64,000 nucleotides of DNA from positions 64,001 to 128,000 of IMG/VR virus record IMGVR_UViG_3300031555_004710; one strand, given 5' to 3'. The DNA comes from a virus. Its lineage: Duplodnaviria > Caudoviricetes. Made by a program: the position numbers and the translations under genes. The notes below the pieces were generated by a model. That model was not told the origin of the DNA and did no database searches. It saw only the letters and a program-made list of their open reading frames with translations. Every line of letters starts with the position of its first letter. Position 1 is the stretch's first letter. Shown here one piece after another: positions 27,455-43,789 of this stretch.

Positions 27455-27466
27455 AACAAAATCTTA
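27455..27466 (+). promoter_or_regulatory. late-type promoter AACA-N6-TA
   Basis: AACAaaatctTA upstream of RNAP gene. Confidence 0.6.
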
Positions 27467-31820: not shown

Positions 31821-33476
31821 TTGAAGGAAGGAGTTGATGATATGATGGATAATATTAATTTTCGAATGCTTAAAAAGTCCGAGCAAAAATTTATTATAAA
31901 ACACGGATTATTTGAAAATATTGGAAAACCTATTAAACTTGGGGGCGATATATATTATCCCATTCTATATAGGAATTTATTTCTACGATATTATATTACA
32001 TTCAATGGATGTGTCTATGATATTGTAACTAATCAAACCAAAAAATATAATATATATGATAGTATAGTATTAATCGACATTAATACAAATTTTAAAAAAA
32101 TGTATACCATAAGAGAACTAATATTTGCATCATTTTATAGATTTCCTGAAGGTTCAGATATTACGATGACAAACGAGCATACACATGATATTGAATATGC
32201 TTATCATATTGAATCTGGGACGGTTGGTTTTTATACTATTTTAGGAGTGGAATTTAGAAAAGTCATAGTACCAAAACATAATAGATATTATAAGGCAGTA
32301 ACTAAAAGTAGGAAATTTGTATTAATAGTTTCGGAAAATGGTGCTGTCTATGATATACAAAAGAAACGATTTTTAAATATTAACATTGATGATGATGGGA
32401 TTCCTTATATAATACTAAAGCATACTGTAAGGATTACTATTGATGAGATATTATTATATAGCTGGAATGAGCATTTAGAAGTTGACCCAGAACTTTATCA
32501 ACTAATAAACACCTCTCCAATAAAATTATTTGTGAATCGACATACATTAGTATTATTCAATGATAAAAGTAATATATATCTACCATTAAACAATGCAGTC
32601 GTTTCTCAAAATATTAGCCCATTTATATCTAGCGAAAATCTTCCTCGCTCATTTAAACGTAATAATAGATATTATGATAAATGGTTAATTGATGATTTAG
32701 GTAATCTTAGTCAAATACCTATAGATGGACTATCTGAATATTATATATCTAAATGCGGAATAATACTTAATCAAAATAATGCAATACTAAATCCTTATAA
32801 GATAATATATAATAATGAAAATATATCAGATGTATTGTATAAATTTCCGAATATCGATAAAGTATTTTCAATTGGTGATATATTAATATGGACATATTTT
32901 AGATTAAATTATTCAGCAATTGAAAAATCTTTTATACAATTTACATTTCATAAAAGATTCAATATACCAATAGTATATAATTTACACATAATATCTAAAT
33001 TCTTTCAAATAGGAAATACTACTCCATTAATAGGTGAAATGATATTTACACCAATTAGTGGATTTCCAAATTTCTTCATATCTACAACAGGTGCAATTTT
33101 TAATGCTAAGCATCGATATTTTATTCAGATGCACAATCAATCTAGAGATGACGGGACTACTCATATTCAGTTACCAATAGGAAACGAGTTACGCTGGATA
33201 GATATAAATAAAACAATGTATCGTAGCTGGTATGGTTCGATTCCACATGGAGCCAGAGTTAGCATGAAAAATATGATACGTGGAGATTATAGTTTAGCAA
33301 ATATACAACTAAATATTTCTTCATCAACTAATTGTAATATAAATAAAGTTAGAAAAATTCATGCATCAATTAATAAAAGTAGAGATCGTGAAAGAAAAAT
33401 AATAGAGAGTATTCAATCTATAACAATAGATGAATACTCTAATAAATTTCCTATACCAGAAATAATTGATATTTAA
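31821..33476 (+). CDS. protein of tandem degenerate NUMOD4/HNH-like repeats (true start probably ATG ~31842)
   Basis: four units YYITFNGCVYD, IVSENGAVYD, YYISKCGIILN, FFISTTGAIFN; last unit ends in an HNH_3-like segment lacking the catalytic His. Confidence 0.55.
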   Translation: MKEGVDDMMDNINFRMLKKSEQKFIIKHGLFENIGKPIKLGGDIYYPILYRNLFLRYYITFNGCVYDIVTNQTKKYNIYDSIVLIDINTNFKKMYTIRELIFASFYRFPEGSDITMTNEHTHDIEYAYHIESGTVGFYTILGVEFRKVIVPKHNRYYKAVTKSRKFVLIVSENGAVYDIQKKRFLNINIDDDGIPYIILKHTVRITIDEILLYSWNEHLEVDPELYQLINTSPIKLFVNRHTLVLFNDKSNIYLPLNNAVVSQNISPFISSENLPRSFKRNNRYYDKWLIDDLGNLSQIPIDGLSEYYISKCGIILNQNNAILNPYKIIYNNENISDVLYKFPNIDKVFSIGDILIWTYFRLNYSAIEKSFIQFTFHKRFNIPIVYNLHIISKFFQIGNTTPLIGEMIFTPISGFPNFFISTTGAIFNAKHRYFIQMHNQSRDDGTTHIQLPIGNELRWIDINKTMYRSWYGSIPHGARVSMKNMIRGDYSLANIQLNISSSTNCNINKVRKIHASINKSRDRERKIIESIQSITIDEYSNKFPIPEIIDI

Positions 33477-33483
33477 AAAGAAT

Positions 33484-33511
33484 GGGATAGCGACTATTTA
33501 TTCGCTATCCC
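33484..33511. terminator. terminator-like hairpin
   Basis: GGGATAGCGA/TCGCTATCCC directly after stop; weak T tract. Confidence 0.6.
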
Positions 33512-33778
33512 AAATATATAGTATATGATTTACTATTCTCCCACCTCAATCAGTTCTATTAACCGTTTTATATTAGTATCTCATAAAGAGATGCTACCCT
33601 GAAATAATTTGAAAATATTACATATCTTTATTTTTTTATATTATACACGAATAGGTCGTGGGGCCTTGATATAGATTTTTCAAATTAATAATTTTAGTAA
33701 ACTGAAATTCTCAAAAAAGAGAGAAAATAAATCATTAATTTAATGTTATGTATTAAAATTAAAAAATAAAACACTTGT

Positions 33779-33790
33779 AACATATGAGTA
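33779..33790 (+). promoter_or_regulatory. late-type promoter AACA-N6-TA driving an ORF-free unit
   Basis: AACAtatgagTA where the GC-richer structured stretch begins. Confidence 0.5.
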
Positions 33791-34555
33791 AACCTATCGA
33801 ATAGAAATTCATACTAGGTGTAATGAATGGTATTCGAAGGAGCAGTGAAAAATAGGATAAATGATTATCCTATCGGTTGATTATTCTTACAGGATTTTGA
33901 TAAACATTGAAATATTAATCATAGATGAAACGTGACTGCGATATCGGTTCATAAAAATGAAAAGAGCGTCAAAGCGCGGTATGGGATTAGGGGGGAAGCT
34001 CTCTATGATACAGCGGGTAAGTTTCTGCGTGCAGATGGATCCATGATTGATTAATATTTACAATTTCTATTTTTAATAGTGAGTTGGTTGTTTACTTTTC
34101 GGTAAGGTATGCACAGGAGTATAAACGGCATTAGTGGTAATTGGTGAGATGGAGGTCAACGAGCACCCATCAAATGGAATTGTAAGATAACTAGATTAAA
34201 AATCCTAGTTCTAGATATTTTGACAATGGTTACTATTTTACTATATGTATTATAGAGCGCATTGTTTTAAATTTTATTTAAACAATTTTCAGCCAATTAC
34301 CGCCATAAACGGTAACTCGGTAATTGCTTAGCCTCTAATGCACCCGTTTATTTATTTTTTATTTAATTTAGTAGACATGGTAGGGTACATTATCGGCACT
34401 CTTAGATTTTATAATTTAGTAGAAATATGGTTTCAGTTAAATACAGAAACTATATTTCTTTTTCATGCGTAAAGAATTTATTTCCAACTTGTTTGGAAAT
34501 AAATTATGCGCAAAATGAAAAAGTAAAACATCCTATCATAGATAGGATGTTTTTT
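33790..34555 (+). ncRNA. candidate large structured ncRNA (~765 nt)
   Basis: ORF-free, GC above background, nested long-range helices (33910-33921/34048-34059; 34121-34144/34293-34351), about ten stems, 3' terminator. Confidence 0.65.
34525..34555 (+). terminator. intrinsic terminator
   Basis: AAAACATCCTATC/GATAGGATGTTTT plus T tract, with no ORF ending upstream. Confidence 0.8.
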
Positions 34556-34604
34556 CTTATTTTTAATTTATTATAAATATTTTAAATAACCAAATATATA
34601 ATCG

Positions 34605-34612
34605 TATATTAT
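34605..34612 (+). promoter_or_regulatory. early-type promoter TATATTAT
   Basis: CGTATATTAT; second copy at 34627. Confidence 0.5.
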
Positions 34613-34681
34613 TCTACTGATAATGATATATTATTTTAATGAATAATATAAAAATAATTGTAATTAGGAGATTAATATAAA

Positions 34682-35248
34682 ATGAAAAATGTATGTTTAA
34701 TATATATAGGTTATTTGACTGGATATCGTTATTCTGACCCGATCTTATTATGTGTATCTGATGAAAAGATTAAAGTTAAATATTATTTAAAAAATGTAAG
34801 AAATTTATCTAATAAAGAATATGATATTCGAGAAGTAGTATTAGATTTTGATACGGCAATGATATTATACGAAGATTATGTATTACAAGATTTTGAAAAA
34901 GATTGTTTATTTTTAACTAATCGAGATATTGAATATTTAAATACAGAAATACAAACTACAATTCAACAATTAGAAATATCATATGATAATCTAAAAAGAT
35001 ATTGTGAGATTGTAAGAAAAGTACCATCTATGAAAGATTCTTTAAATACATTGTATTCTTCGTTAAAAATAATGGAAAAACAGTTATCGAAAGTAAAAAC
35101 ATTACGAAAATTATGTAATGCAGATATAAAAGACTCTCCAATATTTTCAAGAAATATTTTAGAGTATTTAAAATACATGGATATATTACAAGAAGATAAA
35201 GAACTAACCGAAATGTTTTATAGAAAGGTGTGTGATGAAAATGAGTAA
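34682..35248 (+). CDS. hypothetical protein
   Basis: 188-aa ORF, GGAG SD. Confidence 0.8.
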   Translation: MKNVCLIYIGYLTGYRYSDPILLCVSDEKIKVKYYLKNVRNLSNKEYDIREVVLDFDTAMILYEDYVLQDFEKDCLFLTNRDIEYLNTEIQTTIQQLEISYDNLKRYCEIVRKVPSMKDSLNTLYSSLKIMEKQLSKVKTLRKLCNADIKDSPIFSRNILEYLKYMDILQEDKELTEMFYRKVCDENE

Positions 35249-43717: not shown

Positions 43718-43789
43718 GTAAGATGACGGGAGTCGAACCCGCAACCTCCGGGAAAGCCCCGGCGCTCTACCACCTGAAGCTACATCTGT
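43718..43789 (-). tRNA. atypical tRNA-like gene (collapsed anticodon loop, no CCA; at best pseudo-Lys CTT)
   Basis: D arm GCTT/GAGC with TGG; T arm GCGGG-TTCGACT-CCCGT; anticodon stem CCGGG/CCCGG with 5-nt loop GCTTT; acceptor stem only 5 bp. Confidence 0.7.

Follow-up and report, generated by a model that had tools for sequence, protein, structure and literature searches.

What is encoded in a stretch of about 1.2 kb of a phage genome that contains only reading frames of 40-49 aa and is richer in GC than the DNA on either side of it? The stretch lies at positions 33477-34681 of the window, by which we mean the whole 64,000 nucleotides analysed here, bases 64001-128000 of a 236.7-kb IMG/VR virus record from a phage that is known from metagenomes only. 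Coding DNA in the window is AT-rich, at about 20-28% GC, and the GC content of the gap is 0.30-0.365 across 33800-34400 versus 0.155-0.28 in the flanking bins. An original prediction, made from the letters of the window, had recognized both the absence of genes and the GC-richer part, and had proposed that the latter specifies a large structured noncoding RNA (ncRNA) with its own late-type promoter and terminator. The large structured RNA is borne out for the plus strand, where conservation, folding and covariation make a real, independently transcribed RNA, here called RNA-1, quite probable; not anticipated was that universality among relatives is limited to the 3' half (core domain and 3' hairpin), the 5' domain differing between two subtypes.

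Large structured RNAs without a known function are rare in bacteria and phages, and GOLLD, ROOL and OLE showed unprecedented RNA-only architectures; the present locus adds to these few large, ornate RNAs an unrelated new family with clear covariation. GOLLD is a phage and prophage ncRNA of ~800 nt with a conserved 3' and a variable 5' region, whose expression rises at lysis and whose function is unknown, and ROOL is a large ornate phage and prophage RNA first obtained from rumen samples; both assemble into RNA-only cages (PMC12286853).

In the window, the gap is preceded by the gene for a multisubunit-type RNA polymerase beta subunit and a 551-aa HNH-like ORF, and is followed by an ORF of 188 aa (Table 1). 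The polymerase beta gene is uninterrupted, its profile match extending to position 1420 of 1424, and the nearest isolates by this protein, at ~31% identity, are Listeria phage LPJP1, the Staphylococcus S6/MarsHill group and Yersinia phiR1-37. By its sequence, the phage is a member of the AR9/PBS1-like branch of jumbo phages with virion and non-virion RNA polymerases. No GC-skew switch occurs at the gap.

Relatives were reached via homologs of both flanking proteins in a larger protein collection, and are contigs of ENA and Logan metagenome assemblies that we take, from their sample codes, to be probably of animal-gut origin. Nine of these related phage contigs have kept the gap, both in its position and in blocks of its sequence. 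The order polymerase beta, HNH-like ORF, ORF-free gap of 1.2-1.7 kb and 188-aa gene recurs in L009, L010, L034, L037, L038, L039, L040 and L047, and in part in L007 and L008, with HNH-like homologs 28-47% identical to that of the window and 188-aa homologs 62-73% identical. The L007 gap matches the window at 70% nucleotide identity over 657 nt, next to a protein that is 47% identical; close to the 3' end, a block of 62 nt is 75-87% identical in six further loci (BLAST) that have otherwise diverged, and RNA-1 measures 740-956 nt in the relatives. Neither blastn of the gap nor tblastn of the HNH-like ORF gave a match among 50,697 phage records. In IMG/VR, three kinds of query (the flanking proteins, a profile built from 16 sequences of the 188-aa protein, and a 20-nt pattern taken from the 3' hairpin) returned only the record of the window itself; the 20-nt pattern also occurred in 23 stretches of JGI metagenomes, none of which extended past ~25 nt, and these are thus chance matches.

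A hidden gene in the gap was considered and rejected. Six-frame peptide comparison among the relatives gave no conserved reading frame in the gap, merely matches of 11-38 aa that were scattered over frames and strands. ARAGORN called no tRNA or tmRNA gene anywhere in the window. The sole Rfam match at gathering level in the whole window is a weak tRNA match at 43721-43787 on the minus strand (34.4 bits), which ARAGORN does not call.

Table 1. Features of the locus in window coordinates, with the evidence on which each assignment rests
Feature	Position	Strand	Evidence or remark
Multisubunit-type RNA polymerase beta subunit, 1419 aa	27502-31761		PHROG E 1.9e-154
551-aa protein of repeated I-HmuI-like/NUMOD4-like units, degenerate HNH motif	31821-33476	+	PHROG HNH match E 1e-5; syntenic homologs
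RNA-2, second predicted structured ncRNA, ~250 nt, divergent from RNA-1	33480-33736	-	Alignment A8
Late promoter motif AACA-N6-TA, predicted for RNA-2	33736-33747	-	Only such motif between gap start and RNA-1 start
AR9-type late promoter motif AACA-N6-TA, predicted for RNA-1	33779-33790	+	At aligned position in 7 of 9 relatives; published AR9 consensus
RNA-1, predicted large structured ncRNA, ~766 nt	33790-34555	+	Start placed at last base of late motif, end at end of terminator hairpin; fold z, synteny, covariation, no ORF, no Rfam match
5' hairpin, subtype 1	33793-33840	+	5 compensatory double changes, window vs L007
9-bp hairpin	33852-33873	+	2 compensatory double changes vs L007
Domain A, closed by 12-bp long-range helix 33910-33921/34048-34059	33910-34059	+	Closing helix: 2 compensatory changes
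GAAG-loop hairpin inside domain A	33988-34005	+	2 compensatory changes and 1 one-sided change
Universal core, domain B	34136-34301	+	R1 scores 78-167 bits in all 8 members
Core helix P_b	34136-34145/34292-34301	+	Well supported
Core helix P_c, with conserved 14-nt loop	34148-34152/34167-34171	+	Well supported
Core helix P_d	34177-34183/34282-34288	+	Well supported
Core inner helix P_f	34224-34228/34260-34264	+	1 compensatory change
Long 3' hairpin, most sequence-conserved element of RNA-1	34459-34522	+	BLAST 75-87% identity; pair counts of alignment A7
Terminator hairpin, 13 bp, followed by a T run in the window	34525-34553	+	8 of 10 pairs with double changes
AR9-type early-promoter-like motif before the 188-aa gene	34600-34619	+	Nearly invariant block in all full-length relatives; early consensus (PMC5312081)

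Folding energies set the region apart from sequences of the same composition. The plus strand of 33779-34560 folds at -215 kcal/mol versus -159 +/- 5.5 in dinucleotide shuffles (z -10.2), and the minus strand of the same region at -173 kcal/mol (z -6.4); a repeat with 12 shuffles gave z -4.3 for the plus strand (shuffle mean -166, sd 10.7). A comparison with dinucleotide shuffles had been proposed together with the original prediction, and it speaks for a fold in every relative as well, with z values from -2.7 to -10.4 in a smaller repeat. In each of the relatives the minimum free energy of the plus strand lies 19-60 kcal/mol below that of the minus strand. One invariant U-G pair and common G-U pairs are present in the core, and RNA-1 is therefore assigned to the plus strand.

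The conservation and covariation that a genuine RNA was expected to show in relatives are both found, the former in nine contigs and the latter on the plus strand. The core, domain B, is described by a covariance model, R1, that matches all eight members and comprises four helices, three of them (P_b, P_c and P_d), nested and with conserved junctions, well supported. Thirteen of the 26 core pairs have changed on both sides, a count that includes inherited changes, as do those given below, because the covariation sets hold 8-9 sequences only, two of them near-duplicates; none of 500 shuffles reaches the observed pairing or covariation. Core cells are paired in 89.8% of cases versus 77.9% with shuffled partners and 23-50% with slid strands, in an alignment that was fitted to the covariance model and is so biased toward the model structure. 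The nested pairing first proposed for this domain is represented by P_b and P_c, both of which carry compensatory changes in the core alignment. A further predicted hairpin, 34261-34267/34280-34286, had to be given up, as it conflicts with the covarying P_d and P_f and, in the closest relative, would contain a C-A mismatch. Candidate outer pairings between 34121-34134 and 34335-34351 are peculiar to this phage, the contig of its only close relative stopping before them. Further candidate helices from the original prediction are the pairings 33919-33923/34004-34008 and 34189-34194/34205-34210 and a hairpin at 34417-34458.

A partial direct repeat links 34121-34144 with 34305-34328, such that the 3' strand of P_b can pair with either copy. 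Where the second copy lies, the relatives carry a conserved motif for which the 5' strand of P_c is a possible alternative partner, as in a putative switch; in L039 the two do not covary.

Downstream of the core, the 3' hairpin and the terminator together have double changes in 14 of 30 pairs, and again none of 500 shuffles reaches that number. The sequence of the terminator stem differs in every relative and its pairing is kept, so that the U-tailed terminator suggested for the window can be recognized as a covarying hairpin with its T run; most of the relatives' terminators are without a clear U run. The long hairpin before it, likewise anticipated, also shows compensatory changes. In L034 the 3' hairpin is kept and the core is not detectable. 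Pairing of the terminator strands with upstream sequence, either as an antiterminator or as a contact between the 5' and 3' parts of the RNA, was tried and rejected, as candidate matches of 7-8 nt occur in the window and L009 only and are hence not conserved.

The 5' half is comparable between the window and L007 only, and there 19 of the 76 predicted pairs have compensatory double changes. Among them are pairs of the 9-bp hairpin and of the 12-bp long-range helix, two elements that had been picked out from the window sequence before relatives were at hand; a 5-bp pairing of 33963-33967 with 33998-34002 from the same source is not retained, since its 3' strand belongs to the covarying GAAG-loop hairpin. 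Domain A differs between subtypes. Five other full-length members share another domain A, whose model, R2, covaries among them, yet R2 matches these five seeds only and finds nothing in the window, L007 or L039. It follows that domain A of the window is not demonstrably homologous to that of subtype 2, and that RNA-1, as modelled here, is modular, with a conserved 3' half (core, 3' hairpin and terminator) and a 5' domain that varies, at least two versions of it looking unrelated.

With compensatory changes above controls and no conserved frame, RNA-1 behaves as a conserved structured ncRNA; its relation to known families is a separate matter. At the gathering threshold, Rfam gives nothing in the gap across a scan of the whole window. 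Relaxed scans, at E up to 10 on 33450-34700 and at E up to 5 on the loci of six relatives, yield no match to GOLLD (RF01998), ROOL (RF03087), OLE (RF01071), raiA (RF03072) or HEARO (RF02033), and the gap has no match to group I (RF00028), group II, RNase P or tmRNA models. The earlier failure to see tmRNA, RNase P or intron signatures thus agrees with the null results of Rfam and ARAGORN in the gap. As a positive control, the same search finds RF00028 at 86.7 bits inside the polymerase beta gene of L040 and a partial match in L047; since true introns are detected in relatives, divergence of the phage group does not explain the Rfam null, and the suggestion of an undescribed class stands. R1 likewise gave no match in LPJP1, S6, AR9 or Fusobacterium phage JD-Fnp4, a search of limited sensitivity because a loose first look had yielded no candidates in those four, and it finds one copy only in the window's own genome. 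In our reading, RNA-1 probably belongs to a new family of large phage ncRNAs that is absent from curated RNA libraries and is closest in kind to GOLLD and ROOL.

RNA-1 resembles GOLLD in size class, in being phage-borne, in combining a conserved 3' half with a 5' domain that varies, and in its predicted late promoter. It differs in giving no covariance-model match even at E up to 10, in not lying beside tRNA islands (no tRNA within ~9 kb) and in residing in a jumbo phage of virulent type that has RNA polymerases of its own. ROOL is also large and ornate, but its model does not match RNA-1, which has another secondary structure. HEARO and the omega RNA of IscB resemble RNA-1 as structured RNAs genetically linked to an HNH-domain gene; however, RNA-1 is three times larger than HEARO, is not fused to the 5' end of an ORF and has no Rfam match, and the neighbouring protein matches the I-HmuI fold only, with no RuvC detected and the first catalytic His missing. 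The group I introns of AR9-like polymerase genes are structured RNAs of a few hundred nt that, within this phage group, likewise adjoin an ORF of HNH type, and a short motif of the RNA-1 core appears to resemble the P3-J3/4 segment of such introns. In RNA-1, by contrast, this motif sits in a local covarying hairpin and not in a long-range P3, and there are no exons. Nor does the arrangement fit a group II intron, the 551-aa ORF lying upstream of RNA-1 and not within it.

Signals for transcription are provided by comparison with phage AR9, whose late promoters have the form AACA-N6-TA/G with the last base as the start, whose early promoters consist of an extended AT-rich element followed by N6-G, and in which genes expressed continuously are preceded by an early as well as a late promoter (PMC5312081). 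The AACA-N6-TA sequence that had been noticed upstream of RNA-1 is present and corresponds to this published late motif, and most relatives keep it. By itself the motif is weak, with 48 matches in the 64-kb window and only ~2-fold enrichment before ORFs; being so common, it counts as evidence by its conservation and not by its mere presence. Another copy, at 27455-27466, lies 36 nt before the polymerase beta start. At the level of motifs, the locus has what an AR9-type late transcription unit calls for, a kept late motif in a genome that encodes an AR9/S6/LPJP1-like polymerase beta, and the promoter logic of AR9 seems to apply to this uncultivated phage.

The gap holds a second RNA candidate. 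Exactly one minus-strand late motif is found in 8 of 9 gaps, 45-61 nt from the RNA-1 start (~45 nt in the window), and it faces a predicted ncRNA, RNA-2, that is transcribed away from RNA-1. A 16-bp terminal helix joins the two ends of RNA-2, a small hairpin at 33646-33660 is conserved, and a covarying terminator hairpin at 33484-33511 is accompanied by a minus-strand T run in all relatives. Double changes are present in 22 of 38 RNA-2 pairs, and cells are paired in 86% of cases versus 74% with shuffled partners and 39-48% with slid strands. RNA-2 is as well supported as the large RNA.

Immediately upstream lies the gene for the 551-aa protein. The AlphaFold model of this protein (pLDDT 80) gives a sole meaningful Foldseek match, to I-HmuI (1u3e, probability 1.00), and Pfam and PHROGs contain no nuclease family except HNH that matches it, with no RuvC, reverse transcriptase or maturase domain detected. 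Where the first catalytic His of the canonical HNH motif is expected, all nine homologs have Asn and Asp. The protein is vertically conserved and is therefore not an active homing gene; from its sequence it looks like a domesticated, catalytically degenerate homing endonuclease. In the loci examined, the 551-aa gene and the RNA-1 core either occur together or are missing together, the latter in the one related lineage examined, that of L041.

Four other accounts of the gap deserve consideration. RNA-1 could be a very long structured 5' leader or attenuator, with the late promoter serving the 188-aa operon by regulated read-through of the terminator and the RNA acting in cis as a sensor. The pairing of early and late promoters ahead of continuously expressed AR9 genes (PMC5312081) would suit such a scheme, as would the succession of a conserved hairpin and a terminator hairpin, which resembles attenuators, the lack of a strong U run in most of the relatives' terminators, and the identity of the best sub-threshold Rfam match, a leader-peptide attenuator at 25.5 bits against a gathering score of 55. 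A leader of this kind would, however, span ~890 nt, far beyond known leaders. No leader ORF is conserved, and no antiterminator is either: the upstream matches of the window and L009 have no equivalent at a comparable 5' position in L010, L037, L039 or L040. Moreover, the 188-aa gene has its own conserved early-promoter-like block after the RNA-1 terminator, so that the downstream operon would not need the RNA-1 promoter. We consider a leader improbable. Very unlikely indeed is a relic of a homing element that stayed behind with the adjoining gene, be it a self-splicing intron that has decayed or lacks its ORF or another RNA of such an element. That gene does derive from an I-HmuI-type HNH homing endonuclease and comes and goes with the RNA-1 core, and group I introns do occur in the polymerase genes of these phages; yet the model that scores so highly on the L040 intron is without a match in every relative's gap at E up to 5-10, group II models give no match, and the genes on either side are complete rather than exons, polymerase beta being matched almost to the end of its profile. 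Protein identities of 28-47% indicate vertical conservation of the module and not patchy mobility, and the unit has its own predicted promoter and terminator.

Two further accounts would dispense with a functional RNA. The conserved site might act as DNA, for example as an origin of replication or a site for packaging that carries divergent promoters, its hairpins forming in single-stranded DNA or its transcripts serving as primers only. Two divergent promoter motifs ~45 nt apart around an AT-rich spacer, and metagenomic contigs that repeatedly begin or end inside the locus, could be read in this way, but the strand-asymmetric G-U pairing and the long-range nested helices with compensatory changes fit an RNA fold, the GC skew does not switch at the site, and the contigs break at different points, for which dense hairpins are an alternative cause; we judge the probability of a purely DNA-level role to be very small. 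Least credible of all is a dispensable, functionless spacer in which AT-rich hairpins have built up by chance. AT-rich intergenic phage DNA often folds somewhat better than shuffles, and unrelated gaps of LPJP1 and S6 have z of ~-3, but chance does not account for position-specific conservation and covariation across relatives whose flanking proteins are 28-47% identical, nor for a gap that keeps 70% nucleotide identity over 657 nt beside a protein that keeps 47%.

We therefore return to RNA-1 as an independent RNA. Late in infection, the phage's non-virion RNA polymerase would start at the AR9-type late promoter and stop at the terminator of RNA-1, which would be a transcription unit complete in itself. 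The product would accumulate late as a stable, trans-acting structural RNA, not as an mRNA leader or a ribozyme. The most likely use of such an RNA, put forward tentatively and by analogy, is as a scaffold or in assembly. RNA-1 might serve alone as a homo-oligomer, like GOLLD and ROOL, or the nucleic-acid-binding protein encoded next to it, and perhaps RNA-2 as well, might join it in a ribonucleoprotein (RNP). A precedent for an RNA at the assembly stage is the pRNA of phi29, a phage-encoded structural RNA that oligomerizes and acts in virion assembly; with its ~174 nt, unrelated fold and different phage group, it resembles RNA-1 as a precedent only and is not evidence for packaging. More doubtful still is a new class of ornate RNA in which RNA-1, RNA-2 and the dead homing-endonuclease protein might form a three-part RNP or self-assembling particle, for instance in the virion, in packaging or in host takeover; if true, this particle would be a phage RNA machine without a described counterpart. 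The two candidate partners, RNA-2 and the degenerate HNH protein, make binding and assembly experiments concrete, and the universal core of ~170 nt is a compact target for structure determination and for metagenome searches for further members.

The lineage that lacks both the 551-aa gene and the RNA-1 core has a different arrangement. In L041-L044 the 188-aa homolog directly follows the C-terminal exon of polymerase beta (73% identical over the aligned 383 aa), and neither an HNH-like ORF nor an R1 or R2 match is found in the L041 lineage. Before the 188-aa homolog there is a gap of 623 nt (L041:1946-2568, also in L042-L044) that has z of ~-13 on both strands and one minus-strand late motif, and the C-terminal polymerase beta ORF of this lineage carries an extra 240 aa. 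Group I introns split polymerase beta at about residue 1034 in L040 (514-854) and L047 (1-116), and the L041 ORF begins at the same residue (~1034), which suggests an intron there too.

Six independent metagenomic contigs start or stop within or beside the RNA locus, at differing points: L006, L007 and L008 end there, and L045, L048 and L049 begin there. Two assembly pairs break alike, L048 and L049 at the same base and L007 and L008 within 10 nt. The breaks could have their cause in dense hairpins, in strain variation or in something else. The last 62 nt of L006 have 48% GC and appear to be a ribosomal RNA fragment, so this contig is probably chimeric.
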